Shown here one piece after another: positions 1 to 20,515 of a stretch of DNA of 24,255 nucleotides. The position numbers and the translations under genes are program-made. The DNA comes from an uncultured virus (IMG/VR IMGVR_UViG_3300030109_003613). Lineage: Duplodnaviria; Heunggongvirae; Uroviricota; Caudoviricetes. The DNA lies in the IMG/VR virus record IMGVR_UViG_3300030109_003613; one strand, given 5' to 3'. The notes under the pieces were generated by a model. That model was not told the DNA's origin, did not search any database, and saw only the letters and a program-made list of their open reading frames with translations. Positions within the stretch are counted from its first letter, which is position 1. Each line of letters starts with the position of its first letter.

Positions 1-65
1 TTCATACCATTATACGCCCAAATAAAAAACATACCACAAATAATAAAATATATAATATTTAACAT
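1..65 (-). CDS. Start of a hydrophobic small protein running off the window
   Basis: ATG 65 overlaps the preceding TAA (TAATG); MLNIIYFIICGMFFIWAYNGM... open to position 1. Confidence 0.55.
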   Translation of the reverse strand, partial: MLNIIYFIICGMFFIWAYNGM

Positions 66-433
66 TAAAATTTACTCATTATAATTTCATTAATAACTTC
101 TTGTACTTCTTTTCTTGTAGCAGCAAGTTTAAAACTTAAATCTGCTTGAAACCTATCAATTTCTTCTCCATCATCAAATATTACAATTGTTGGTACAATT
201 GCTATTTTATACTTAGCTTGTATATTATCTACACTTATATCTAAATTAGATGTCTTACAATCTTTAAGTTCAGGTAAATAATTAATTCCATTTTGTGTAT
301 TCCAATCAGCATTAAATTGAACTACCTGTATACCATCACTACTAACTTGAGCACTACAAGCACTTGAAAATAGTAATATTAATCCTATTATTAATATGTA
401 TATACTAAATATCCTACTAAGTTCTTTTTTCAT
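65..433 (-). CDS. Exported thioredoxin-fold protein lacking CxxC
   Basis: Signal peptide to CSA|Q; VVQFNADWN where FxAxWCxxC is expected; cis-Pro motif IVPTIVIFDDGEEIDRF. Confidence 0.75.
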   Translation of the reverse strand: MKKELSRIFSIYILIIGLILLFSSACSAQVSSDGIQVVQFNADWNTQNGINYLPELKDCKTSNLDISVDNIQAKYKIAIVPTIVIFDDGEEIDRFQADLSFKLAATRKEVQEVINEIIMSKF

Positions 434-435
434 AT

Positions 436-651
436 TTATTTTTTTGCAAATTTTTCTACTCCACTAATTCCAAAAGTTCCTAATACAACCCATACAAATG
501 AATCATATACAAACTCGTTTATAACTAGATCTTTACCTGTATAACCAGATATAACATCAGCTAACATAACTATCACCATAATAGCAAAAGCAATAAAACC
601 TACAATAGATTTTTCATTCCAATCATTATTATTTTTAAATATTTCAAACAT
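436..651 (-). CDS. Two-TM small membrane protein (holin-like)
   Basis: 71 aa, two hydrophobic helices, charged C-terminus EKFAKK. Confidence 0.55.
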   Translation of the reverse strand: MFEIFKNNNDWNEKSIVGFIAFAIMVIVMLADVISGYTGKDLVINEFVYDSFVWVVLGTFGISGVEKFAKK

Positions 652-652
652 A

Positions 653-937
653 TTATTTTAATTTATCAATTTTATCCTCAATACGTCTCATATCTTCTTT
701 TATTTCTTTTACATCATCTTGAGTATTTAGAATAGTAGATCTAATATTTTCATCTTTCATTTGAAACTCCATTCTAGTTACTTCTGGTGGAGGCGCTACA
801 GGTAATTCTTTAGCTTCTTCTATATCAGCTTGTAGCATAAACCACATACTGATTATAGTTACCATAGCAAAACCAATAGCTACAAGAGTTTTTACACTTA
901 ATTTAAAGGACGTATCTTCGTTTAATTCTTTTGCCAT
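653..937 (-). CDS. Single-TM protein with Pro linker and C-terminal coiled coil
   Basis: TM LVAIGFAMVTIISMWFML; LPVAPPP; DVKEIKEDMRRIEDKIDKLK heptads. Confidence 0.6.
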   Translation of the reverse strand: MAKELNEDTSFKLSVKTLVAIGFAMVTIISMWFMLQADIEEAKELPVAPPPEVTRMEFQMKDENIRSTILNTQDDVKEIKEDMRRIEDKIDKLK

Positions 938-938
938 A

Positions 939-1148
939 TTAATTCCAAAATGTTATTTTACCTATTATACCTAAAATTGCAATCCATATAGACCACAATA
1001 CTTTTGTTGTTGACTTTCTAAAATCTGTATTTTTATTAACTCTTGCTATAGTTCCATCATCTGGGTCTAGTAGCTTCTTTTTAATAAACCTTACATCTTC
1101 TTTAAGGTCTTTTAGTTCATCGTGTATTTGCTTATTTGTTATAGGCAT
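939..1148 (-). CDS. Small protein: coiled coil + C-terminal TM helix (XhlA/holin-like topology)
   Basis: ELKDLKEDVRFIKKKL heptads, then VLWSIWIAILGIIG hydrophobic segment. Confidence 0.55.
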   Translation of the reverse strand: MPITNKQIHDELKDLKEDVRFIKKKLLDPDDGTIARVNKNTDFRKSTTKVLWSIWIAILGIIGKITFWN

Positions 1149-1321
1149 TACACTTCAAACCCTAAATTTAATATCATAAATCTAAATCTTTTTGCTGTGC
1201 AATTTTCATCACAAAACAAGCAAGCTTTAAATTCTAAAACTGTAAATGTTCCTAATCTAAGATTAAGTTCAAACTTTTGCTTTTTATTTCCGGCTTTAAA
1301 ACCGTTTATCCAATTTACCAT
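1148..1321 (-). CDS. Small 57-aa hypothetical protein missing from the ORF track
   Basis: Translated by hand: MVNWINGFKAGNKKQKFELNLRLGTFTVLEFKACLFCDENCTAKRFRFMILNLGFEV*; fills the gap, A-rich upstream, TAATG overlap with the next gene. Confidence 0.8.
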   Translation of the reverse strand: MVNWINGFKAGNKKQKFELNLRLGTFTVLEFKACLFCDENCTAKRFRFMILNLGFEV

Positions 1322-1332
1322 AATTATAATTT

Positions 1333-1701
1333 TTAACGTTTTCCGCCATGATATTCTACAGCATGGCCTTCTTTAATTAATTGTTTATTAACATTGATTT
1401 GTGTAATCTGATCGGTTCCGTCAAGTTTATCGACATATAACTCTCCTAATACACGACCATATTTACCCAATTCTTTAGACTCTAGAGTAAAGCTAGGATT
1501 TTCAGCGAAAATAGCTTTCACCCTATCTTTGGCTGCTAACCCTCTAGCTTTCTCTTCTAAATCTCTAGTTCTGCTTTCTGGTGCATTTATACCAGCAAAC
1601 CTAACTCTTTTTTTAATAGACACATCAAATCCTAAATCTATATTGACATCTATTGTATCTCCGTCAACTACTTTTTCTAATTTAGCTTTATATGTATACA
1701 T
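1333..1701 (-). CDS. Thermonuclease (staphylococcal nuclease-like, SNase)
   Basis: VVDGDT, RVRFAGINAPE, GKYGRVLG, NKQLIKEGHA motifs; no signal peptide. Confidence 0.92.
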   Translation of the reverse strand: MYTYKAKLEKVVDGDTIDVNIDLGFDVSIKKRVRFAGINAPESRTRDLEEKARGLAAKDRVKAIFAENPSFTLESKELGKYGRVLGELYVDKLDGTDQITQINVNKQLIKEGHAVEYHGGKR

Positions 1702-1702
1702 A

Positions 1703-2782
1703 TTAAAATATTTTATAATTTATTCCAAATTTAAAATCATACCATTTTCGATTCCAGTATTTGTTATACTTTCCTTCTACAAAACATCCTACATTTCTAT
1801 TTAAATTATATCCAAAAATTACACCCCCTGAATAATCAGACCATTGTTTTCCATCATTAAAATTATGATAAGAAAATTCTCCTCCATTATTATAGTGCAG
1901 AGGCATTACATTGCCCCATGAGTGTAACCAAAAATCTTTTTTATAATGATAAAAATCAAATCCTAAAACTAATGAGTGAACCCATTGATTAGGCAATTCA
2001 TCTTTTTTTCTTTCTACATAATCTTCAAGTACTTGTGGTATTACTACTTCTTCCCATACTTCAGAACTAGTTGCTACTATATTACCATCAGGATTTTTAT
2101 ATTCGCTATTAAAAACATCTATTGAATATCCTTCTTCAATAGCTAATTGTGTATAATGTAAATTACCATTAGATAATAACCATTCTTCTAACGGTTCATA
2201 TCCATAAGGTTCTGAAATTCTTTGTAAAGCTCCCATATTAAAAGAAAGTTTACTTTTAGAATTAAATCTTATTCTTTGTGTTGCTTCATAATATTCTACA
2301 TCTGCAAACCCATCTTTTACATAAGCAACTTTTATTAACCATTTAGGTTTTACATAACGTAAAAAATGATTTTGATCTAAATATTTAATACCTTCTTGTC
2401 TTCTATAATCTACCTCAAATAAATATTCAAAAGGACTTTTACCAATAGTAGATGCATCAGAATAAGATGATTCTGTACCATCTTTAAATTTACTTATGTT
2501 TTCATATTGAAAACGTTGTATTTTTCTAACTCCTAATGATAATGAATAATCGTAAGGTGTTTTTATAACATTATTAGTTAAAGCTCCTGTATTAACAGAA
2601 AATATATCTCTATCAGACAAGGATGTACCTCCATTAGCTGCCACATAAAATGTAGAAAACTTAAATGCTTTTTTTATTTGAGCATTACAAGTATTAGTAA
2701 ATGATCCTATCATAATAATAATCATTAATATTATGATTCCAGAAAATCCTACTTTTTCTAATATGTTTTTATTTTCTTCCAT
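1703..2782 (-). CDS. Putative outer-membrane beta-barrel protein (359 aa)
   Basis: Hydrophobic signal peptide ending CNA|Q; many alternating aromatic amphipathic strands; C-terminal beta-signal YDFKFGINYKIF. ATG 2782 (TAATG overlap) preferred to 2797. Confidence 0.7.
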   Translation of the reverse strand: MEENKNILEKVGFSGIIILMIIIMIGSFTNTCNAQIKKAFKFSTFYVAANGGTSLSDRDIFSVNTGALTNNVIKTPYDYSLSLGVRKIQRFQYENISKFKDGTESSYSDASTIGKSPFEYLFEVDYRRQEGIKYLDQNHFLRYVKPKWLIKVAYVKDGFADVEYYEATQRIRFNSKSKLSFNMGALQRISEPYGYEPLEEWLLSNGNLHYTQLAIEEGYSIDVFNSEYKNPDGNIVATSSEVWEEVVIPQVLEDYVERKKDELPNQWVHSLVLGFDFYHYKKDFWLHSWGNVMPLHYNNGGEFSYHNFNDGKQWSDYSGGVIFGYNLNRNVGCFVEGKYNKYWNRKWYDFKFGINYKIF

Positions 2783-3951
2783 TATGCTGCTGACCATCGT
2801 CTTTTAAGATATGTTTGTACTCTTGAAAGTTCTGATGATGTTAATTTTCTATCTAATATTAAAATTTCTCCTACTTGCATTCCTGTACCATCAGAAGCTC
2901 CGTTACTAAAAGATCCAAAATATTGCATTCTATATCTAGTATTACTAGGACTAGATTCTCCATCTGGATATGCTCTACTAGCAATATTTGTATTATCAGA
3001 TTCTTTAAGTTTTCCTCCTATATAGTTTGTACCATTATAAGAAGCACAAATTTCTTCGTTACTATCACCTCTTCCTTTTACAAATATCCAAACATAATTT
3101 GTAGTTGCTCCAAGTGTAACGCTAGTAGAACTATCATCAGTAGTATTATGTTGTATCACATTATAATCATTTGTTGTACTTCCATCTGTATTAAATTGAA
3201 TAATACAGGCATTTCCACCTAGTTTTACTTGATTTCCAGAAGTACTATCATCAGCAAAAAGTGTTTCTTGGTTTGGAGTACCGTCAAATCTTGCAACTAC
3301 TATAACACTAAAATCCTGATCTGTTGTTTGTAGCACTGAATCTAACATTAACGAATCTTTAGTTCCATCCCAATATAATACTGGTTTTCCTGCAGCTCCT
3401 AGTCCAGAAACCTTCATTTTAGGATATGCATCTACAGTATTATTAGTTTGAGGTCTAGGCTTAAGAAAATATAGAGTATTAGATGGTCTTGATCTACTAT
3501 AAATTCTTGGATCAGCTATTTGAGTTCCATGTCTTGTTTGCATCACAACTCTACCATATTGATCATTAGCAACAGTAACTGCACTTGATCCAAATCGCTC
3601 TCGTGTAACTCCAGTAAAAGCTGTTACATTACTACCACTAGTGGTAACTCCGGTATAAGTAAAATACTCTGAATCTATTACAAATGTACCCCCTAATTGA
3701 CCAATATTACTAGTTGTAGGGAAAGTAGTTCCTAATGTTACAGTTCCCTCCCCTGTCATTCCAACACTGTCAGCAAAACCACTAGAAGATCCTACTTGAA
3801 AAGCTACGTGTGTTCCTAAATATCTAGGCTCACCACCGCTTGACCCAATACCTGAAAAATCAAAATGTAATAATACATCTCGAAGCTCAGACATTCTCCA
3901 CATCTTCTGCTTTTGCTCTACATTACTTATACCTAGTCCTATTCCGTTCAT
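2782..3951 (-). CDS. LamG/ConA-like lectin-domain fibre with N-terminal GIGLGI peptide
   Basis: MNGIGLGIS start; PVLYWDGTKDSL, FSVIVVAR, VGEILILDRKL...E...VQTYLKRRW LamG-like pattern; inserted IDSEYFTYTG...FTGVTR module. Confidence 0.65.
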   Translation of the reverse strand: MNGIGLGISNVEQKQKMWRMSELRDVLLHFDFSGIGSSGGEPRYLGTHVAFQVGSSSGFADSVGMTGEGTVTLGTTFPTTSNIGQLGGTFVIDSEYFTYTGVTTSGSNVTAFTGVTRERFGSSAVTVANDQYGRVVMQTRHGTQIADPRIYSRSRPSNTLYFLKPRPQTNNTVDAYPKMKVSGLGAAGKPVLYWDGTKDSLMLDSVLQTTDQDFSVIVVARFDGTPNQETLFADDSTSGNQVKLGGNACIIQFNTDGSTTNDYNVIQHNTTDDSSTSVTLGATTNYVWIFVKGRGDSNEEICASYNGTNYIGGKLKESDNTNIASRAYPDGESSPSNTRYRMQYFGSFSNGASDGTGMQVGEILILDRKLTSSELSRVQTYLKRRWSAA

Positions 3952-4715
3952 TATCCTACATATGCTATTACTGATCCTGAAGCTAAAGTAAATCCATCGT
4001 ATCTACCATATAAAGTCATCCCTGCTGGAAATGTAATACCGTCAATTGCTGTTCCTGCATCCCCATCAACTGCTGTACTTGTCTCAGTATCATCTAAAAA
4101 AGTTTGAGAAATAGATGAAGTTAAACCTCCAGCACTACCGTTAAATACAGTATCTGTTAACATGTAAATTGCAACAAATGTTCCACCAGTTATACCACAA
4201 ACTACTGCAGTAGTATCATTAACTAAAATAGCTCCTAATTGCCCTATTGAACTAGTTGTATATAATGCTCCTGTAGCATTAACTTGTAATGGAGAATAAT
4301 CTCCATCAGCACCTCCAAGAGTTGCTAAATCATCATTTCTAACCCCTAAAGGCATAACACCAACATCACCACTACTATGTGCTGCGTCTTCTGCTTTACC
4401 TAAATTAGTTGCTCCAGTTCCTGGTACAATACTAGTAACATCTACGTCACCAATATCTACACCACTATTTGCTGCTAGTTTACCAATTGCATTTGTGCCT
4501 GCTGGCAATGACGCAACTATATCAACTTGCATTTCAGTTCCACTTATAGCATTATCTATAGTTTCGACTGCTGTTTTAATAGCTGTATTAATAGTTTCTA
4601 ACGCCTCTAAATTTACATCAACATCTCCTAAATTAATTTCAAGGTCAGCTGTGTTTTGTCGAATTTTATCGAGTAAAATATCTGTAGTCGTTCTTGGATT
4701 TATAATTTCTCCCAT
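3951..4715 (-). CDS. Structural protein with coiled-coil N-terminus and spike-base-like C-terminal domain
   Basis: LPAGTNAIG and KAEDAAHSSGDVGV...VRND...DGDY.PLQV fibre-type motifs; C-terminal FVAIYMLTDTVF...FPAGMTLYGRY...LASGSVIAY; TAATG-coupled to the next gene. Confidence 0.55.
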   Translation of the reverse strand: MGEIINPRTTTDILLDKIRQNTADLEINLGDVDVNLEALETINTAIKTAVETIDNAISGTEMQVDIVASLPAGTNAIGKLAANSGVDIGDVDVTSIVPGTGATNLGKAEDAAHSSGDVGVMPLGVRNDDLATLGGADGDYSPLQVNATGALYTTSSIGQLGAILVNDTTAVVCGITGGTFVAIYMLTDTVFNGSAGGLTSSISQTFLDDTETSTAVDGDAGTAIDGITFPAGMTLYGRYDGFTLASGSVIAYVG

Positions 4716-4733
4716 TTTTATATATTTAAATTG

Positions 4734-5150
4734 TTACTCATTTATTATTAAGTCGAGAAGAACTATTTGTTCTGCGTTAACTTCTTCAGGTAGATCTTGT
4801 ACATCTATAGTATGAAGATCTAGTGTTAAATCAATTTGCATTAATTCTTTAACTTTTTCAACCTGTTGACGCCTTTTTTCAACTATTTCTTTATTCTCCT
4901 CTTCAAGTTTTGCAACTTGCTCTGCCCCATTCTCTGGATTACTTCTAGTAATAGCATTAACTTTATCAGCTAATTCCATAAATTCCTTAGAAGGAATGTT
5001 TGCTTGTTCTAAGTCTTTCAAACTGCTAGTTAGAATGGACATGTTTCTTCCTGCTACTAATGCTAATTTTTTACTTTTTAGCGTTTTTACAGAATGTAAA
5101 CCACTATAAAGGTCTACAAATTTTTCTTTGGTTGTTGTAATTGTTTTCAT
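4734..5150 (-). CDS. DUF1617-like helical protein (possible fibre chaperone)
   Basis: 138 aa helical; ALVAGRN...ELMQIDLTLDLHTIDVQDLP...IVLLDLII pattern; adjacent to the fibre gene. Confidence 0.45.
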   Translation of the reverse strand: MKTITTTKEKFVDLYSGLHSVKTLKSKKLALVAGRNMSILTSSLKDLEQANIPSKEFMELADKVNAITRSNPENGAEQVAKLEEENKEIVEKRRQQVEKVKELMQIDLTLDLHTIDVQDLPEEVNAEQIVLLDLIINE

Positions 5151-5175
5151 TGTCTATATAATTAATTGGTTAATA

Positions 5176-6591
5176 TTAACTTGGGTTTATAATTAAAAAG
5201 TGAATTTTACTAGCAGTAGCTGAAGTAGCACCTGTAGCATCACTATGCATAATACTTATTTTAAAACTTCCATTTGCATGCGTATGCGTAGCACACGAAA
5301 GTTGAGCATTATTAGTTGTATTTTCATCTTGCATACTTACAAGAATAACTGATGTAGTTTTAGCGTAACTATTAGTTACAGTAAATTCTGCATTTGTATC
5401 ATTTGCTAAAGCTACGGCTGCTAGAGTAATAATTCCACTACTAGCATTTATAGTAACACCAGTAGTATGATCTGTTGCTTGTGTTACTGTTCCACTATTT
5501 GTATGTACTATACCTTCTGTAGCTCCAGTAATAACTAAGCTACCTGTAGCAACTGTTACATCCTGTCCTTCAGCTCCAACTACTAAAGCATTTGTTGCTG
5601 ATGATCCAGTATAAGTTTTTATCTGTACATCTCCATCAGTCCCACTAGAAGACTGACCTGCTGTAATAACTACAGATCCACCTGTACCACTTCCTGTTGC
5701 CTCACCAGCTGTTAATTGTAAATCTCCAGATCTATTATTTACAGATGATCCAGATTCAATTGTCAAATTAGAACCTGCTGTACTACCAGTAGCTGCACTA
5801 GGTTTAATATTTGCCGCTACATCACTAGCAAATCTAATACCTCCAGTTCCTAAATTTAAATTATCACTGTTATGATATGAAGCAGTATCTCCTATATAAG
5901 CATTATTTCCTGTTATTCTAATTCCATTTTGATTTCCATCTGAACTTAAATATCCAGTACCTAAATCTATATCATTATTATCACAATCTAAATCAGCTGC
6001 TAGTGTAGATAAAGTAGCTTCTATTGTTATTGATCCAGCACCATTCGTAATAGTTACGTTTCCACTAGCACCTGCTGTAAGAGTTGCTACTGAAGGGTAT
6101 CCTGTAGTTGCATTACCTATAAGTAATTGTCCATTAGTTGCCATTGTAGCTGAAGAAATAACATCTGTTGCAGATGCGTATAATACTGAACCTTTTGCAA
6201 GAGTACTTAAACCTGTACCACCGCTTGTTACTCCACACTCTCCTGTTACAGTTCCTGTAAAATCTACACCTGTTATAAAACCTGATGTAGCATTATTACA
6301 TAAACTTAAATCTATACCAGCTTCTAATACTGTTAATTCTATATTATTTGAACTAGTTGCTACTGTTAATAATCCGGTATCCCCAGATTTTATTCCTTTA
6401 AAATTTAATTGATTTTTATTTGTAACACTGACAAATAAAGCTTCTGAGCTAGTTCCTAATGTAGTCATAGAAGGAAAAAGAGTTTCAATAGACATCTTTT
6501 TATTAAAAGATGAAACTTCACTTTGGACTTGAAAATAATCTGTAGTAGCTGTACTTGTTTTGGCCAGTGTGCTTAAATTTATTATTGCCAT
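5176..6591 (-). CDS. Tail/head fibre protein
   Basis: G/S/T/A-rich; fibre motifs LNFKGIKSG, VTSGGTG, NGQLLIG...ATLTAG...ITNGAGSITI; C-terminal VTQAT...TGVTINASSGIIT domain. Confidence 0.75.
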   Translation of the reverse strand: MAIINLSTLAKTSTATTDYFQVQSEVSSFNKKMSIETLFPSMTTLGTSSEALFVSVTNKNQLNFKGIKSGDTGLLTVATSSNNIELTVLEAGIDLSLCNNATSGFITGVDFTGTVTGECGVTSGGTGLSTLAKGSVLYASATDVISSATMATNGQLLIGNATTGYPSVATLTAGASGNVTITNGAGSITIEATLSTLAADLDCDNNDIDLGTGYLSSDGNQNGIRITGNNAYIGDTASYHNSDNLNLGTGGIRFASDVAANIKPSAATGSTAGSNLTIESGSSVNNRSGDLQLTAGEATGSGTGGSVVITAGQSSSGTDGDVQIKTYTGSSATNALVVGAEGQDVTVATGSLVITGATEGIVHTNSGTVTQATDHTTGVTINASSGIITLAAVALANDTNAEFTVTNSYAKTTSVILVSMQDENTTNNAQLSCATHTHANGSFKISIMHSDATGATSATASKIHFLIINPS

Positions 6592-6602: not shown

Positions 6603-9600
6603 TTAATAGTTAATATTTGAAGGGCTAACAGGACCAAATGTACCTGTATAGATATTACCTGCTCCAAAATCTGTACTGCAATCCTTACAGAAATTTCTTG
6701 CAAAGTTAATAAAATTATCGATATAATTAGTATTATCTGAAAAATTATACGTATTAAGGTCTTGACACAGCTTCCAATTTCCAGATAATGCGCCCTGTGG
6801 TAATTCTGGATTATATGTTGGATTTCCTGTCGTAAAATTACCTCCTAACTTCCATATCAATCCACTAGGCATTTTTATTACGTCTCCCCACTGCAAAGAT
6901 GCACTTGCAAAAAAGTTTCCTGGATCTAAAATTTCAGTTCCAGTATCTGCATTTGTTGTATGAGTAGCAAATCCAGAAGCTGTTGAATCGTGATTAGCTC
7001 CTGTATTAGGACCTCCTTGTACCCACTGTTCGTGACATGTTAAAACAACAGGAGCATCATTTGGAGTTGCATTATCCTCACAATTATATAAACATGCTAA
7101 GTCTGGATCTGTATTAAACATTACATAATTAATTAATGTAAGCTTCCAAAAATTTAAAACTGAACAATCATCTGCTAATCCACTTGCTATTTTTCTTCTA
7201 TAATCATATCCTTTTATAGTTAAACAATGTCTAACTGTATCTAAATATTTTGGATAAACATTTCTATCTAATCTACAAGGATTTACAGGTATATCATATA
7301 TACACGAACCATCATCACCAATTGCAGATGGAGCGTAATTTATTGCTAAAGGATTTGTACATCCTAAATATTGACAACTGCCATCATCACAGACAGCTGT
7401 TGAATCATAGTTAACAGCATTTGGATCAGTACATCCTGCTGATGTATCCATACTTACAGAAAAATCATGTTGAACCGTACAACCAGTTTCTAAATCTTCA
7501 ACTAAAATATAATATGCTCCAGGATATAATGCTGCTTCTGCTGTTGAACTTTGTTGAGTCCCTTGTGTACCAGCAGTACTATAAATTGTAGTTCCTGATT
7601 GATGTATATTACTTACAGTAGTGAAATTTATAGCTTGCCATGCATAAGTATTACCCGGTCCTATTACTATTGCGCTAAATGTATTAGTTCCATTATAAGT
7701 ATTAACTTGAAAACTAAATGTACCATCTTGATTTCCTAAACATCCTGTATTTTGAGTTGCATTTGTAATAGTTACATTATCAATTGTAGGAAGTATTCCA
7801 GGATCTGAACAATATGTACAACAACTTGTATCATTATAATTTGCATTTGGAACATAATTTCCATTACAATCATAATTTATATTTATAGCTGATGGATCTA
7901 AACACGCATAGTATATACAAGAACCATCATCATAAGTTGCTCCTTGATTATAATTAGCAGCTAATTGATCCATACATCCTCCTACAGGATACATACAAGT
8001 TCCATCATCACAAGTAGCAGTAGGATTAAAATTAAGAGCATTTGGATCCATACACCCATAATCACAAGATATACATGAATTATCATCAACTGTTGCTGCT
8101 GGGTTATAATTAACTGCAGTACTATCCATACATCCACATACAGGTAATGTAGCTGTTCCAAAACTTATATCTTCAAGACAAATAAAAACTCCTGCTGCAT
8201 TTGTAAATCCTATTTCTACCTTCATTGTAATAGTAGGATCAGGATGCGCAATCTGATCACTTTGTATAATCATAGGATTATTAGGACCTATTGTATAAGT
8301 TGTTGGATTTTGAGAAGTATAAGGTGAACCATCTACATACCATTGTAAATCAATAGTTCCTCCTAAAGTACTTTCTAACATAAATTGCGCTTGAGCTCCC
8401 CAACATCCTACTACATAACTTATATTTGAAAAACTAAGAGGACATGTGTATGTACAAAGAGTAGGATTACTAATTGCTAAATCTGCAGGTACACTAACAT
8501 TATAATTATCTGCACTAGTATCCATACAAACTTTTGTTTGAACACTACCAAAACCCCATGAAAAACATTCTTCTATTTCTATAGTACTTCCTGTTCCGTC
8601 ATTTATTTTAATTTTAGCACCATAATGAGCATATGCTAATCCTGTAAAGTTATGAACAGGAGACGCTAATCCTGTTTGAGTAGCAACTGCTGATCCTATA
8701 ATACTTGTTTCATCTCCAGCTATTGATAATTTATATAAAGTAATTTCATATGTAAAACTAGCTGTTAATTGTAATGCTAATAATAAAGGATCAACTAAAA
8801 ATTGAACACTAAACTCACCGTCTGTTGCTGAACTATTAGTAGTAGGTTGTGTAGTTAAATTTAAAACTTCAAATAATTGTAAAATAGAAGTACCATCAGC
8901 ATCTTGAACCCATCCGCTTGTAGCATCACAATACGCGCAAGAATTATCATCAATTACAGCTAAAGCGTTATAATTTAAAGCACTACTAGTAGTACATCCA
9001 GTTACTGCAGGGTTTTCGTTTATATATACATTAAATGTATCTACACATCCAGCATCATCTGTTACCGTACATTGATAAGGTAAAACACCTGTAGTTGGTA
9101 ATAGAGATCCCCATGTATGTTTATATCCTGCAGAAAAAACTAAAGTATTTGTACCTGCTGCAGTTGCACTTACTTGATTTCCATTTATATCAACTAATTC
9201 AAACTGAGTAAGACCTGAAGCATCAGAGCCAATATCTCCCGCAAGAGCTTGTCCAACAAAACTATTTGTCGGTATACCTGTTCCAGTAACTCTCATTCCA
9301 GTAGTTATTTGATCATCTGCAGAACCAACAGTTACTTGATGTTCTGTTCCTGAAGTTGTATTAGTTGTACAAGAAATAGATGCTGTATTACCACCTGTTG
9401 GCGGCGCATCTTGTGTAATTGTTAAACTTGGATGTGATATTGTATATGTATAATGACCAGTACTAAAAGGAGTTCCTAATCCATTTGCTCCTCCTAAACT
9501 TGGATCAGTCATATCTATTGTAATAGAACCGTCAGCTGTTCCAAATGTAGCATTTGATGATTGTGCTGCTGCTTGAAATCCACTACAGTCTACAGCACAA

Positions 9601-11081
9601 CATGTTCCTCCTGGAGGAGAAATAAAATTAGCATCCCATGTACCATCTAAATAACTAGCATTAATTGTATTTCCATCACAATCTTTACTTGTTGTAATAA
9701 AATAACTAGGACTATTTTGCTGTAAACAAACTTCAAGATCTGGTATATTAGCTCCTGTATAACAAGTATTTAAATTATCAGCATATCCAATTGTATTAGC
9801 AAAATTTAAAAATTTTATAGTTGGGTTATCAAAATCTGGCACTCCTGCAAAAGTTGGCATATCTGATAATTGAAATGCATTACTCCCATTTAACATTGCT
9901 TCTTGTATAGCAAATGTTAATTCAAAAACATTAATTGCATTTAACATTGCAGGACTTAAATCTAATAATTGATTATAAGATTGCTCTTGAATTTGTAATC
10001 TAATAGCATTAAATCCTTGCATATCAGAAACACTAGCATCAGGTCCTAATACATAACCTCCTACTATACTTTGTTGCCAAGATTTTGGAACATTTACATT
10101 TACTCCAGCTTGAGTTTGTGTAGCATGCCAATCATCAGTTTGACCTATAGTCATATCTGAATATACATTAGTTTGAGAAGTATTATGAAAAGCTATTCCT
10201 TTAGAAATTCCTTCTGCATAGCCAACATTACTTGCTAATGTAGCATTAACAGATGCATTCCAATCATCATATCTAACTAAAGTATTATCTGTATTTGGAG
10301 TAATAAAATTTAAATAATAAGCATCTCCAGCTGCAGTTCCTGGACTACTTATTTTATTATAATTACTAAATTGATAATCTCCTTGTAAACCAGCAGTTAT
10401 CTCACCTGTTGCTGCACTACCAACACAATTTTCGATATTTCTACTTTCAGAAAAAACATTACTTCCATCTGAAAATACACTGCCTGAACTTTCTTGTCCT
10501 GCTATATTTACTGTATGTCTAGTAAGAGTACCACTTTGCCATCTAACATCTATAACAAATGTTTGCATAGCAAGTGAGGCATTATTAGGAAATTGTAGTT
10601 CAAAATAATGTGTTTGACCTAATGCATTATAATGTGTTACACCATTTAAAACTGGTTGTGGATAAGGAGCTGGATACGCTGATGATACATCTACTACTTT
10701 ATCACATACAACACAAGCACTATAACTAACAATTACTATAGGATTACCTCCTTTATGAGAAGAATGTCTAAATCCGTATACAGTAGCATATCTTTTATCA
10801 AAAGGTATTTGAGCATTTCTTGCAAATTTTGCAATAGCCTGATCTGTATTTATTTTTGAATTTTTAGTAAATTTTTCTCTTGCTGCTTGTTTAGCAGTTT
10901 GCTGTCTTCTTTTAAATTTTTCTTTTTGAGAAAGTTGTGCATTAAAAGCATTATAAGCACCTGAATCTGTAGATGCTAATTCTTTAAGAATTTCATTACT
11001 AGAACTAGATGATTCACGAGACGTTTCAGATCTTTCTGACCCTCTAGAACTACCACCATATCTGTCTTCTTCTGTTGCCAT
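6603..11081 (-). CDS. Giant (1492 aa) adhesin-like virion protein with SprB-like and GCxD-DDGSC repeats and a hub-like C-terminus
   Basis: About 8 GCxDxxAxNY...DDxSC repeats; three DG(S/E/T)(I/F)...Y.V.V.D..GC SprB-like units; helical Cys-containing C-terminus ending FARNFCKDC. Confidence 0.7.
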   Translation of the reverse strand: MATEEDRYGGSSRGSERSETSRESSSSSNEILKELASTDSGAYNAFNAQLSQKEKFKRRQQTAKQAAREKFTKNSKINTDQAIAKFARNAQIPFDKRYATVYGFRHSSHKGGNPIVIVSYSACVVCDKVVDVSSAYPAPYPQPVLNGVTHYNALGQTHYFELQFPNNASLAMQTFVIDVRWQSGTLTRHTVNIAGQESSGSVFSDGSNVFSESRNIENCVGSAATGEITAGLQGDYQFSNYNKISSPGTAAGDAYYLNFITPNTDNTLVRYDDWNASVNATLASNVGYAEGISKGIAFHNTSQTNVYSDMTIGQTDDWHATQTQAGVNVNVPKSWQQSIVGGYVLGPDASVSDMQGFNAIRLQIQEQSYNQLLDLSPAMLNAINVFELTFAIQEAMLNGSNAFQLSDMPTFAGVPDFDNPTIKFLNFANTIGYADNLNTCYTGANIPDLEVCLQQNSPSYFITTSKDCDGNTINASYLDGTWDANFISPPGGTCCAVDCSGFQAAAQSSNATFGTADGSITIDMTDPSLGGANGLGTPFSTGHYTYTISHPSLTITQDAPPTGGNTASISCTTNTTSGTEHQVTVGSADDQITTGMRVTGTGIPTNSFVGQALAGDIGSDASGLTQFELVDINGNQVSATAAGTNTLVFSAGYKHTWGSLLPTTGVLPYQCTVTDDAGCVDTFNVYINENPAVTGCTTSSALNYNALAVIDDNSCAYCDATSGWVQDADGTSILQLFEVLNLTTQPTTNSSATDGEFSVQFLVDPLLLALQLTASFTYEITLYKLSIAGDETSIIGSAVATQTGLASPVHNFTGLAYAHYGAKIKINDGTGSTIEIEECFSWGFGSVQTKVCMDTSADNYNVSVPADLAISNPTLCTYTCPLSFSNISYVVGCWGAQAQFMLESTLGGTIDLQWYVDGSPYTSQNPTTYTIGPNNPMIIQSDQIAHPDPTITMKVEIGFTNAAGVFICLEDISFGTATLPVCGCMDSTAVNYNPAATVDDNSCISCDYGCMDPNALNFNPTATCDDGTCMYPVGGCMDQLAANYNQGATYDDGSCIYYACLDPSAININYDCNGNYVPNANYNDTSCCTYCSDPGILPTIDNVTITNATQNTGCLGNQDGTFSFQVNTYNGTNTFSAIVIGPGNTYAWQAINFTTVSNIHQSGTTIYSTAGTQGTQQSSTAEAALYPGAYYILVEDLETGCTVQHDFSVSMDTSAGCTDPNAVNYDSTAVCDDGSCQYLGCTNPLAINYAPSAIGDDGSCIYDIPVNPCRLDRNVYPKYLDTVRHCLTIKGYDYRRKIASGLADDCSVLNFWKLTLINYVMFNTDPDLACLYNCEDNATPNDAPVVLTCHEQWVQGGPNTGANHDSTASGFATHTTNADTGTEILDPGNFFASASLQWGDVIKMPSGLIWKLGGNFTTGNPTYNPELPQGALSGNWKLCQDLNTYNFSDNTNYIDNFINFARNFCKDCSTDFGAGNIYTGTFGPVSPSNINY
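7297..9002 (-). repeat. Coding GCxDxxAxNYxxxAxxDDGSC repeats (~24 aa unit)
   Basis: Units near 8930-9000, 8450-8530 (degenerate), four tandem at ~7815-8135, two tandem at ~7300-7437. Confidence 0.9.
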
Positions 11082-18037: not shown

Positions 18038-20515
18038 TTATTTATTTTTATTTTTAATTTTTCTTAGTTTTTTACGTGTTCCTCCCTTTTTAAATTTATA
18101 ATTAGGATTATCTCTAAGCAATTTCAAATATTCATTTTTAGATAAAATTCCTTGTGGGTTTCTAACTTGAGTTCCTTTTGGACCAAATATTGTAGTAATA
18201 TTCGCACCCCTACTTACAAAATTAGGATTAACAATAGATCCTGGAGGTATTTTAGCAAGATCATCTACACTTTTTCCTAGTGTTGTATATACACCTCCAC
18301 CCAGCTCTAGAGGTAAATCAAATTTACCTTTATTCCATTTTCCTACATTTTGAGTATATGGAAATTGAAAATTTAAAGCATCTGTTCTTTTCTTAATTGT
18401 ACTAACACTTTCTGGTCCTACTAAAGGATTTCCTCTACCCATCTTTATTATATAGGGATTTCCTCCTTTATTTCCTCTACCATATAAATTTATTAGATTA
18501 GAGTGATCCCTTGACCCACTACCTAAAATCCAAGATTGATCACTAGTGGTACTTAATACATCAAAAGGGGTTTCTCTTTGTAATTGTGAATATCCTGTAC
18601 GTCTTCCTGTAGTTGGTACTTTTGGTATTGTTGTACCATATTCTGCAGCTTTAGTTACTTCATCTATCTTTGAACCAAATGGAACATCTACCACTCTATA
18701 TAGTGAATGCGGATCTTCTATTAAATCTGTGTTTTTCCCAGAAGGTTTAGACTTAGTAATAATATTTACATTTTTAAAATCAGAAGGTTTTTTTGAAGAA
18801 CCTTTAATCAAGTCTTTTACTTTTTGATAACCTTTTTTAACGAGTCCACCAGGAACAAATGGTAATAGAAGTCCTGCACTATGTAAAGCTGCTTCTCCGT
18901 AATCTCCTGTTGCTACATTTTTAACAACATTTTTAGCATCTATGATTTCTCCTGAAATAGGAGCAAAATTCATAGCACTTATATCATCATCTGATACAGT
19001 TTTAGTCTTGCCTCCTGGTGCTAAACTAAAATGCTCAAGATCTTTGATACCTTGATATATTTTATTTCTAGTACTAGTATCAGTTGGTTTTATAGTACCT
19101 TGTTTACTTTGACTTTCTTGAGATACTTTTAATAAATGAGGCGGTATATTAGCTATAACATTAGGATCAATAGTTACTTTTTCTCCTCCATTTTTATATT
19201 GTAATATATCTTTTGCTTTATACATTCCTCCGTGCTTCATATAAGATTTTCCTACTTCTTCATATTTTTTCTTATAACCCTCTTCAAATGTTTTATCACC
19301 TTGAAATAAAATTTTATTTACATAATTTTTTGATTCATATATAGGTTTATTTGTTTTAGTTCTATGATACTTAGGTAAATCTTTAATCCAATCTAAACCT
19401 GAATATATATCATAGCCATCATCTTTCATTTTATTTAAAGTATTAACTAATTTTGGAGGCCCCATATTATAAGCAGCTAATGCTTTTGCTCGTCTTACAG
19501 TTTCATTTGCAGATTTTTCTTGACTATTCCAAGGTCTATTCATTAGATCTTCCATATACTTTTGCTGTAAATCAATAGATAAATCTGTATTAGTTTTCAA
19601 ATCTTGAAACTTAGCTCCTTCTGGAACCCATCCTCTACCTTGCATATACTCAAAAGTCTGTTCAGTAATTTGAGATAATCCTATTGCGTTAGCAGGACTT
19701 ACTGCTTTTGGATTAAAACTTGACTCAGTAAATAATTGCCTATTTAAAAGACTATCCATTGGAATATTTGATTTATAAGGAATGCCTCTATCTCCATATC
19801 CTTCCTCTTCTTTTTTTATACCTGCATCTTGAGGAGTAGGATGAAGTCCTCCATGTTTTAATTTAACATTTAATCCAGAATCAACAGGTTTTTCAGTAGA
19901 GGTACTATAAACAGTGCCCTCAAACGTAAAAGTCTTTTTCTTATTTTTTTTAGCTTTTGCTTTAGCTTTATAGAATTCATCAAATGGTTTTAAATCATCA
20001 TAATAACCACCTTTTTTATATTGTCCTAAATTTTCTTCAACTGGATCAATTTCTCTTCCAATTGGTAAATTAGTCATACTAGGAGGTGTTGATTGATAAG
20101 ATTGAACTAAACCTCCAGATTTATATACTCTATTAGTACCTCCTATAAGTGCTTCAGTACTATATGGGTCACCTGCTGCCCCTGTACCCCACATTGCTGG
20201 CATATCACTAGCATCTTTGGTAGGATCAATTAATCCAGCTACTCCCATAAAAGGTTTTAAACCTTTACTTGCAAATCCTAATAAATTAGTTGCTTTACTT
20301 ACACCTTTTTTTATTAATCCTTTTACACCCATTGTTTGAGTGAGATCAGCAGCTCCTTCTACATAACCTCCAGTTGCCATTTGTTGAGGTTGTTCTTGCT
20401 GAAGAGATTGCATAAGCTCTTGCTGTTCAGCTTTACGGAATAAATCTGAAACAGATCCTTTATAGTCATTAGCAATTGCTTGCTTTAATATTTCCATATA
20501 CTGACTAGACTCCAT
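18038..20515 (-). CDS. Multidomain putative virion cargo protein: SLT lytic transglycosylase + pre-toxin-TG-like + possible ADP-ribosyltransferase-like domain
   Basis: SLT motifs ESSFNPKAVS, GLSQI, ALAAYNMG, ESKNYV; PT-TG-like FAPISGEIIDA...GDYGEAALHSAGLLLPFVPG; LYR...STT pattern; TAATG overlap with portal stop. Confidence 0.75.
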   Translation of the reverse strand: MESSQYMEILKQAIANDYKGSVSDLFRKAEQQELMQSLQQEQPQQMATGGYVEGAADLTQTMGVKGLIKKGVSKATNLLGFASKGLKPFMGVAGLIDPTKDASDMPAMWGTGAAGDPYSTEALIGGTNRVYKSGGLVQSYQSTPPSMTNLPIGREIDPVEENLGQYKKGGYYDDLKPFDEFYKAKAKAKKNKKKTFTFEGTVYSTSTEKPVDSGLNVKLKHGGLHPTPQDAGIKKEEEGYGDRGIPYKSNIPMDSLLNRQLFTESSFNPKAVSPANAIGLSQITEQTFEYMQGRGWVPEGAKFQDLKTNTDLSIDLQQKYMEDLMNRPWNSQEKSANETVRRAKALAAYNMGPPKLVNTLNKMKDDGYDIYSGLDWIKDLPKYHRTKTNKPIYESKNYVNKILFQGDKTFEEGYKKKYEEVGKSYMKHGGMYKAKDILQYKNGGEKVTIDPNVIANIPPHLLKVSQESQSKQGTIKPTDTSTRNKIYQGIKDLEHFSLAPGGKTKTVSDDDISAMNFAPISGEIIDAKNVVKNVATGDYGEAALHSAGLLLPFVPGGLVKKGYQKVKDLIKGSSKKPSDFKNVNIITKSKPSGKNTDLIEDPHSLYRVVDVPFGSKIDEVTKAAEYGTTIPKVPTTGRRTGYSQLQRETPFDVLSTTSDQSWILGSGSRDHSNLINLYGRGNKGGNPYIIKMGRGNPLVGPESVSTIKKRTDALNFQFPYTQNVGKWNKGKFDLPLELGGGVYTTLGKSVDDLAKIPPGSIVNPNFVSRGANITTIFGPKGTQVRNPQGILSKNEYLKLLRDNPNYKFKKGGTRKKLRKIKNKNK

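Follow-up and report, generated by a model that had tools for sequence, protein, structure and literature searches.

A near-obligate phage gene trio for an outer-membrane β-barrel, a thioredoxin fold without redox cysteines and a small inner-membrane protein: a candidate outer-membrane disruption module

We analysed a 24,255-nucleotide stretch of DNA from an uncultured virus of the Caudoviricetes (IMG/VR record IMGVR_UViG_3300030109_003613; the whole stretch is referred to as the window), in which a run of closely packed genes lies at the downstream end of the late region. Three of these genes, coding for an outer-membrane β-barrel, a 94-residue inner-membrane protein and an exported protein with a thioredoxin fold lacking the redox cysteines, are a near-obligate unit in other phages. 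Taking gene neighbourhood and protein topology together, we propose, with a probability of about 0.4, that this trio is a lipoprotein-free, spanin-like module for disruption of the outer membrane. Its members are the following.

1703-2782, minus strand: outer-membrane β-barrel protein, 359 residues, assigned by an AlphaFold2 (AF2) model, fold matches and a signal peptide
653-937, minus strand: type II inner-membrane protein, 94 residues, assigned by hydropathy and alignment
65-433, minus strand: exported thioredoxin-fold protein without redox cysteines, 122 residues, assigned by profile, AF2 and Foldseek

An original prediction for this DNA had taken the whole run as one trans-envelope cassette of eight genes and had staked itself on the co-occurrence of these genes in other phages. 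The cassette as such does not hold up, as there are seven genes of which only three travel together in relatives; for these three, co-occurrence is strong. Starting from the barrel, we fetched a close set of 80 IMG/VR loci (53-74% identity), a distant set of 80 more through an alignment of distant homologues, and 12 loci from genome collections, 172 in total, and determined the presence of each family by profile searches over all of them. A full barrel open reading frame (ORF) was found in 161 loci, the 94-residue protein in 146 and the thioredoxin-like protein in 140, always together with the 94-residue protein. When the loci are collapsed at 90% barrel identity, all three genes are present in 100 of 112 lineages, and in 69 of 72 when only lineages flanked by at least 5 kb on each side are counted; across the lineages, barrel identity to the window ranges from 29 to 76%. 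The reverse search, from the 94-residue protein, gave the same picture: among the best 80 of at least 578 loci, 79 carry the thioredoxin-like gene and 73 the barrel gene, and where the flank reaches at least 6 kb these figures are 44/44 and 43/44. An apparent exception, formed by L049 (no partners in view) and L190 (no barrel in view), turned out to be a single contig with the genes about 10 kb apart. The thioredoxin-like gene directly follows that of the 94-residue protein in 126 of 144 loci, within 10 nt in 119 of 140. A complex prediction for barrel residues 40-364, residues 36-94 of the 94-residue protein and residues 29-122 of the thioredoxin-like protein (score 0.00, mark 0.32), run without controls, speaks neither for nor against binding.

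The barrel ORF is open to position 2797 (364 residues). The most likely start is M6 at position 2782, because it makes a TAATG overlap with the upstream gene for a 389-residue protein and agrees with a 359-residue database record and with an Atlas record. The signal peptide ends in TCNA before a Gln, and the C-terminus reads NYKIF; a terminal Phe is present in 127 of 153 distinct homologues, and in 148 of them a signal-like hydrophobic N-terminus leads to a small residue and a Gln. Searches of Pfam, PHROG and NCBIfam gave no match for the barrel (E up to 0.01-0.1), nor did Pfam for its 28 aligned homologues, save for one chimeric row with an FGE-sulfatase domain. The AF2 model built on these 28 rows has a predicted local distance difference test (pLDDT) value of 79.5, a predicted template-modelling score (pTM) of 0.72 and about 14 strands, with a conserved loop at about 93-122 (disordered at 96-116 in the model) and a helical insert at about 196-270. 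With Foldseek against the PDB, all 38 matches at E of at most 0.001 are outer-membrane barrels (NanC at 1.4e-6, FapF, Tsx, OmpG), at low TM-scores of at most 0.36 by query length. An exhaustive VIA fold search placed 12-stranded barrels on top, with Z-scores of 13.5 for KdgM, 13.4 for the EstA barrel, 12.9 for NanC and 12.2 for LpxR. By model and fold matches, the phage protein encoded at 1703-2782 holds as an outer-membrane barrel, with either 12 or 14 predicted strands, and the barrel with signal peptide and C-terminal Phe of the original prediction agrees with the homologue tallies as well.

Nearly invariant among the polar residues of the barrel are R91, K92, E124, R175, Y283, W290, H292 and N360. 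Several of these residues lie near strand ends on the C-terminus side of the AF2 model, as does the conserved disordered loop; by the usual topology of outer-membrane barrels, this is the periplasmic side. Two memberships proposed for the barrel were rejected. Comparison by hhalign of the 28 barrel rows with 9 PorP/SprF sequences from Bacteroidota metagenome-assembled genomes (MAGs) gave a probability of 4%, with only the signal peptide aligned, and the PorP/SprF family PF11751 was matched neither by the barrel or its 28 members nor found in G001, the nearest database record, or in control genomes. An 8-stranded barrel of the Lom/OmpX type does not suit a 359-residue protein with about 14 strands and no Pfam match.

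The signal peptide of the thioredoxin-like protein ends in ACSA before a Gln, and in the mature part WNTQN replaces the WCGPC of thioredoxin while the cis-proline loop (VPT) is kept. Against the Pfam family Thioredoxin (PF00085), the single sequence scores 0.0011 (19.3 bits), under the cut-off of 23.5. The fold assignment comes from deeper comparisons: a 37-row profile finds 203 thioredoxin-type sequences in the PDB at 0.01 or better (best 6e-10), the AF2 model reaches a pLDDT of 91.4, and Foldseek lists classical thioredoxins first (2.6e-6, target TM-score 0.68) with almost nothing but thioredoxins in the top 50. In the alignment, FWAxWNxxN or FNAxWNxxN stands at the place of thioredoxin FWAxWCGPC, and the cis-proline, P81, is invariant in the 37 aligned sequences; a CxxC motif occurs anywhere in the protein in only 6 of 134 sequences. 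The clade of the window is without the first strand-helix unit in this alignment. The cis-proline loop of thioredoxins lines a peptide-binding groove. Since this loop is kept, the protein could serve as a non-redox adaptor. A signal peptide of the signal peptidase I type (small-x-small) followed by Gln is found in 133 of 134 sequences. The exported, redox-dead thioredoxin of the original prediction agrees with these tallies. Gln after the cleavage site is known as the 'Q-rule' for signal peptidase I substrates of Bacteroidetes (available parts of PMC5837995 and PMC10653852), and the accessible text of PMC10367356 already notes Q-rule proteins in Porphyromonas phages.

The 94-residue protein is predicted to have a short N-terminal cytoplasmic part, one transmembrane segment at about 14-35 with lysines on its N side and acidic residues on its C side, and a Pro-rich linker (ELPVAPPPEV) leading to a periplasmic, heptad-patterned helix of about 45 residues. 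The family is well conserved, the alignment holding LQADIxEAKELP before the proline-rich linker, and all but 3 of 131 distinct sequences are free of Cys. In its layout of an N-terminal transmembrane anchor and a predicted periplasmic coiled coil, the protein resembles an i-spanin. It has no Pfam, PHROG, NCBIfam or Atlas family match, and no embedded ORF of at least 30 residues lies inside 653-937. The membrane layouts of this protein and of two further small proteins of the run (71 and 69 residues, described below) were taken from hydropathy and alignment, and on that footing they agree with the transmembrane plus coiled-coil, two-transmembrane and coiled-coil plus transmembrane proteins that had been predicted.

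Beyond its position at the end of the late structural operon, the trio is tied to lysis by its neighbours in relatives. Pfam searches on these neighbours revealed Peptidase_M15_3 (in L074, L150, L164, L118, L145 and L158), Amidase_2 with PG_binding_1 (in L085) and DUF5675 (in L005), and GTA_holin_3TM proteins of about 128 residues adjoin the hydrolase genes. As tallied with local hidden Markov models (HMMs) seeded on Pfam-verified members, one of the three hydrolase families lies within the flank in 85 of the 140 loci with the trio, a holin in 59 and either of them in 100; over all 172 loci, M15 is found in 47, DUF5675 in 39 and Amidase_2 in 4. The commonest gene order is barrel, 94-residue protein, thioredoxin-like protein, M15 and holin (28 loci). 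The hydrolase families are mutually unrelated, so to speak exchanged at a kept position, as in lysis cassettes. Of the three functions suggested in the original prediction, a non-canonical lysis or outer-membrane disruption machine, superinfection exclusion and a channel remodelling the infected cell, the first gains from this synteny (three endolysin families and a holin with three transmembrane segments); its mechanism is what we propose below. In the lysis region of L158, a 135-residue signal-peptide protein (L158:9708-10115) matches OMP_b-brl (1.7e-4) and the cyanophage family Phage_OMP (0.0075), both below the cut-off.

The search for an outer-membrane lipoprotein ended without a conserved family in the 172 loci, and positions 1-2782 hold neither an endolysin gene nor a conserved lipoprotein, as the original prediction had noted. 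Lipobox-like ORFs number 43 in the 172 loci. Twenty of them are due to a non-conserved Cys in the signal peptide of the thioredoxin-like protein, and the sole cluster with several members lies in another frame inside the barrel gene. The thioredoxin-like protein was itself considered as a lipoprotein o-spanin, its LLFSSAC resembling a lipobox, but this Cys is not conserved (20/140) and the protein is therefore not taken for a lipoprotein. The 96%-complete relative G010 has just two convincing lipoprotein ORFs, both tiny; they lie near the DNA polymerase gene in its replication region, about 50 kb distant. They belong to a group of three tiny genes (L266:966-1526), which code for an 80-residue protein with two transmembrane segments and for the lipoproteins of 46 and 62 residues (LTSC, LGSC). 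These three might have a role in exclusion or in the envelope and bear no relation to the trio.

We infer the place of each protein in the envelope, their physical contact and their role in lysis as follows. The barrel would be exported by Sec and inserted, presumably by the β-barrel assembly machinery (BAM), into the outer membrane, while the inactive thioredoxin fold would reside in the periplasm and the 94-residue protein would be anchored in the inner membrane with its coiled coil reaching into the periplasm. Late in infection the three proteins would accumulate, kept apart or immobile by the peptidoglycan. Once holin and endolysin, the genes of which lie beside the trio in relatives, have destroyed the wall, the thioredoxin-like protein could act as adaptor between the inner-membrane coiled coil and the side of the barrel that faces the periplasm. 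This link would destabilise or fuse the membranes, so that the outer membrane is opened in place of a lipoprotein-based spanin. Besides spanins and disruptin, the trio might then represent a third type of phage protein that disrupts the outer membrane, a three-part 'barrel spanin', a further step that we consider less likely.

Several observations weigh against a disruption module. None of the three proteins resembles a spanin family in sequence. In the 94-residue protein, the periplasmic part counts only about 58 residues, is almost Cys-free and may not span the periplasm even with a 10-kDa adaptor; Rz of lambda, for its part, uses cysteines. The outer-membrane lipoprotein, the defining feature of an o-spanin, is absent, and a β-barrel acting in phage lysis was not found in the literature searched. 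As for the neighbourhood, the barrel gene is directly beside that of the 94-residue protein in only 68 of 160 loci, and the window itself has no endolysin in view. Three complete relatives (115-120 kb) are without M15_3 and DUF5675 anywhere, hence the hydrolase link is not universal, and the assignment of DUF5675 as a wall hydrolase is putative, with a weak match to Tlde1 (0.0034). Finally, the trio has large secreted proteins with a type IX sorting domain near it about as often as hydrolases (79 vs 85 of 140 loci), and the commonest identified gene right after the thioredoxin-like gene is such a cargo gene (38) rather than M15 (24).

The first of the competing explanations is superinfection exclusion, already offered by the original prediction, or receptor masking: the barrel would block or alter a receptor, and the thioredoxin-like and 94-residue proteins would block periplasmic steps of an incoming phage, e.g. 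its transglycosylase. Many phages encode outer-membrane barrels, for which an effect on the receptor landscape has been proposed (available part of 10.64898/2026.10.24.761521). A possible target of a periplasmic inhibitor exists in the window, in the form of a virion protein with an SLT domain (18038-20515). A small exported protein next to a small membrane protein also matches the layout of T4 Sp and Imm. Yet exclusion genes are expected early, whereas those of the trio lie at the end of the late operon beside lysis genes, and a lone Lom-like barrel would not need a near-obligate co-occurrence of three genes. Moreover, with about 14 strands in the model and 12-stranded best matches, the barrel is not an 8-stranded Lom/OmpX, and the small lipoprotein ORFs in the early region of the near-complete relative are more typical candidates for exclusion. 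We keep this explanation as a rival, though an unlikely one: it accords poorly with the late position and with a need for three genes.

The second explanation concerns type IX secretion. A second frequent neighbour of the trio are proteins of 600-1300 residues with a signal peptide, ending in a Por_Secre_tail domain (1.3e-10 in L005, 3.2e-13 in L085, 5.1e-12 in L016 and 8.2e-7 in L082; weak in L001, at 3.9e-4 below the cut-off, and in L013). By local HMM, such type IX cargo flanks the trio in 79 of 140 loci. In L001, the closest relative of the window, a cargo gene for a Cys-rich repeat protein of 940 residues directly follows the thioredoxin-like gene; the same holds for cargo in G010, where DUF5675 comes next and a holin 2.5 kb further. 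Only 64 nt of the window follow the thioredoxin-like gene, so the same kind of cargo gene may lie just outside. Examples of these proteins are given here.

L001:3242-6064, L005:7684-9666, L016:2828-5992, L085:5015-7999, L082:3686-6187: large secreted Cys-rich repeat proteins with Q-rule signal and type IX tail

They contain repeats of the type GCTDxxAxNYNxxAxxDDGSC and YGDGW-type motifs and no other Pfam domain. Sorting-domain proteins of the type IX system have been noted before in crAss-like contigs (accessible part of PMC6949934). The trio could, on this basis, be a helper set for type IX cargo, with the barrel as outer-membrane partner or anchor (as PorP/SprF or PorV) and the thioredoxin-like protein as a holdase for Cys-rich cargo that is to be displayed or released. 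In Flavobacterium, type B cargo genes are often found beside porP/sprF-like barrel genes, and redox-inactive thioredoxin folds such as the b domains of PDI bind unfolded chains. However, the barrel is no detectable relative of PorP/SprF, as seen from the 4% probability and the missing PF11751 match, and in fold it comes closest to KdgM, NanC and autotransporter-type barrels. The 94-residue protein, besides, has no counterpart in the known type IX machinery, and 61 of the 140 trio loci show no cargo within the flank. We regard a helper function as quite unlikely.

Two further families of secreted proteins were seen in these loci. A 181-residue family (e.g. L164:8607-9152) ends in the same type IX domain (hhalign 99.7%). 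In a second clade, a secreted protein of 160-260 residues is encoded directly after the barrel in 45 loci (L150:5618-6175, L093:8056-8775, L118:7981-8559), with a Cys/Asp motif like that of LDL receptor class A (weak Pfam match, L098) and a very acidic middle rich in D, E, T and I. A type IX C-terminal domain in this second-clade protein ('X') was not supported, the hhalign probability being 2%.

Third, the 94-residue and thioredoxin-like proteins might control the timing of lysis by regulating holin or endolysin, with the barrel as a separate neighbour. The RI antiholin of T4 is a small, N-terminally anchored periplasmic protein and would be the precedent. The genes of this pair are the most tightly linked of the trio (within 10 nt in 119/140), endolysin and holin genes follow directly downstream in many loci, and a two-transmembrane, holin-type gene lies directly upstream of the pair in 14 loci and between its members in the window. 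The barrel is more loosely placed, being adjacent in 68/160 and otherwise upstream or separated. Nonetheless, it accompanies the pair in 43 of 44 well-flanked loci, which is unexpected of a mere neighbour across lineages with 29-76% barrel identity, and neither protein resembles any antiholin family, leaving this explanation a slim chance. Low weight goes to an enzymatic barrel, a lipid hydrolase like LpxR or OMPLA, for which LpxR among the fold matches (Z 12.2) and the nearly invariant S275 and H292 could be cited, but these two residues are far apart by the strand register of the model.

The other genes of the run are the following.

436-651, minus strand: 71-residue protein with two transmembrane segments and a charged C-terminus (EKFAKK), by hydropathy; no family match, holin families included
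939-1148, minus strand: 69-residue tail-anchored protein with a charged helical N-terminal part and a C-terminal transmembrane segment, by hydropathy; no family match
1148-1321, minus strand: 57-residue Cys-containing protein, a variable insert, identified as an ORF; no family match (Pfam, PHROG, NCBIfam)
1333-1701, minus strand: endonuclease of the staphylococcal nuclease (SNase) fold, 122 residues; PF00565 at 7.9e-12 (46 bits, cut-off 21) and PHROG 452 'endonuclease' at 3.8e-39

In the 80 close loci, the 71-residue gene occurs in 24, the nuclease in 13, the 57-residue gene in 13 (by tblastn) and the 69-residue gene in 11. The nuclease, 57-residue and 69-residue genes are variable inserts outside the conserved module, contrary to their inclusion in the predicted unit, and the 71-residue gene is loosely linked to it. 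Homologues of the 71-residue protein occur in 56 of the 172 loci, 14 of them directly upstream of the gene for the 94-residue protein and 31 elsewhere; the protein may be a candidate class II holin-type partner with a loose link to the trio. The 69-residue homologues have their transmembrane segment near residue 50, and those of the 57-residue protein were found in 50 of 172 loci with an iterated HMM. The 57-residue gene is usually right after the nuclease gene (window, L001, L013, L034, L063), as if the two moved in a pair.

The nuclease has neither signal peptide nor hydrophobic N-terminus and fits, together with its Pfam and PHROG matches, the cytoplasmic SNase that had been predicted. At the DNA level, the first 4 kb of the window match GenBank phages in one place only, a stretch of 133 nt in this gene (1547-1679); its identity is 80.5% with the endonuclease gene of Prochlorococcus phage P-SSM3 and 72-77% with other T4-like cyanophages (73 records). 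It would seem from this that phages with unrelated marine hosts have recently exchanged the nuclease gene, which looks like a mobile insert.

The run as a whole comprises seven minus-strand ORFs of at least 30 residues, the threshold of our ORF list, between 65 and 2797. Its seven junctions, from upstream, are a TAATG overlap (389-residue protein/barrel), gaps of 1 and 11 nt, a second TAATG, and gaps of 1, 1 and 2 nt. The tight packing described in the original prediction is real, with gaps of at most 11 nt, but the genes are seven and not eight, and the 'several' TAATG overlaps are two. The overlap with the 389-residue gene chains the run to the structural operon as had been stated, and terminator-like sites in 1-5200 were not found (0 vs 1.0 expected). 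The window has 22 large ORFs, without exception on the minus strand; those that identify the virus or stand out are given here.

Major capsid protein, crAss-type: Pfam Crass_capsid at 3.2e-82, phrog_11589 at 7.3e-90
Portal: phrog_6547 at 5e-126
Large terminase: phrog_6681 at 9.1e-96
crAss tail ring protein: Pfam/PHROG match below the cut-off
18038-20515: 825-residue protein with an SLT transglycosylase domain (Pfam 3.7e-13) and a match to phrog_342 'internal virion protein with endolysin domain'
6603-11081: 1492-residue protein without Pfam or PHROG family match

The 825-residue SLT protein is probably an ejected wall-digesting protein rather than the endolysin of lysis. The capsid protein is about 31% identical to those of gut crAss-like phages, and 29 of the 95 records it matched are Flavobacterium phages. 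The GC content is 26-30% in the first 3 kb and 29-38% in the remainder, and a scan of the window found no tRNA. From the capsid, portal and terminase matches and the GC content, we take the window to be the late region of a distant low-GC marine crAss-like phage. The nearest database record, G001, is a fragment of 8.4 kb that does not include the barrel.

The host most plausibly belongs to the phylum Bacteroidota, as judged from the Q-rule signals, the crAss-type capsid and the sorting domains of the type IX system. A collection of 5.8 billion proteins contains 3,569 homologues of the barrel, with no informative name among the 120 matches listed; at 50% identity, the cluster representatives number 297. 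Its Atlas neighbours are all viral; Atlas searches returned only viral hypothetical clusters, and named rows (0.80-0.93, few shared features) were treated as noise. The three proteins of the trio gave no match to 50,697 GenBank phage records. All 12 barrel matches in a collection of species-representative genomes (L081-L092) lie on contigs of taxonomically discordant MAGs, labelled Pelagibacter, Parvibaculum, Nitrosopelagicus, Rickettsiales, Maricaulis, Woesearchaeota, Flavobacteriales and Bacteroidetes, and several carry the full trio plus type IX cargo genes. They are best explained as phage contigs mis-binned by composition into low-GC marine MAGs.

A conserved three-layer set in the lysis region is a concrete candidate for the step by which phages of Bacteroidota breach the outer membrane. 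In the available part of a report on cultured marine flavobacterial phages, spanins are annotated in only few (PMC8776804). If the idea of a 'barrel spanin' were true, the device would be used by thousands of uncultured marine Bacteroidota phages; if the trio served exclusion or secretion instead, its barrel would be the first from a phage to depend on a pair of dedicated partners, including a thioredoxin fold re-used without its chemistry. Q-rule signal peptides and type IX domains also indicate phages tuned to the export routes of Bacteroidota, and with this a host phylum for an uncultured virus group. Phage barrels, dead thioredoxin folds and spanin-like anchors are each of a known kind; what is new is their fixed combination in the lysis region, and no description of the trio was found in the literature searched, subscription journals lying outside its coverage.

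Among known systems, the two-component spanins such as lambda Rz/Rz1 offer the closest comparison for a disruption module. Like them, the trio lies beside holin and endolysin genes, includes a type II inner-membrane protein with a predicted periplasmic coiled coil, provides a component at each membrane and is proposed to act in the last step of lysis. Unlike them, it counts three genes instead of two, has an integral barrel and a soluble thioredoxin fold in place of the outer-membrane lipoprotein, and its helix is short (about 58 residues) and without cysteines, with no sequence match between the two systems. For Crassvirales, the accessible part of PMC10136315 names spanins only unspecifically. 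Disruptin (gp28 of phage phiKT), the known outer-membrane disruptor that is not a spanin, is an example of how spanin-less phages accomplish the outer-membrane step with other proteins, yet it is a single small cationic peptide-like protein whereas the trio is a three-layer set; about 15% of phages are without spanin genes according to the available part of bioRxiv 10.1101/515445.

With Lom of lambda and the outer-membrane proteins of huge phages, the trio shares a phage barrel that carries a signal peptide and needs the export and insertion machinery of the host. As far as it is accessible, 10.64898/2026.10.24.761521 counts 1,603 such proteins in huge phages and cites the binding or masking of LamB by Lom. 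These barrels are mostly 8- or 22-stranded, related to OmpA, OmpX or TonB-dependent proteins, and act alone, whereas that of the trio has about 14 predicted strands, no cellular relatives found and two partner genes to which it is tied in the lysis region. The PorP/SprF barrels of Flavobacteriia resemble the trio in that an outer-membrane barrel gene stands beside type IX cargo genes, but there is no profile similarity (4%), and the cargo beside the trio has the Por_Secre_tail (type A) domain. From the thioredoxin family, finally, the exported protein has a clear fold and the kept cis-proline loop, while both active-site cysteines are replaced (WNxxN) and its Sec export signal is of the Bacteroidota type. 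Thioredoxin folds re-used as binding modules without redox activity have precedents in the b domains of PDI and in the host thioredoxin that serves as a subunit of T7 polymerase.

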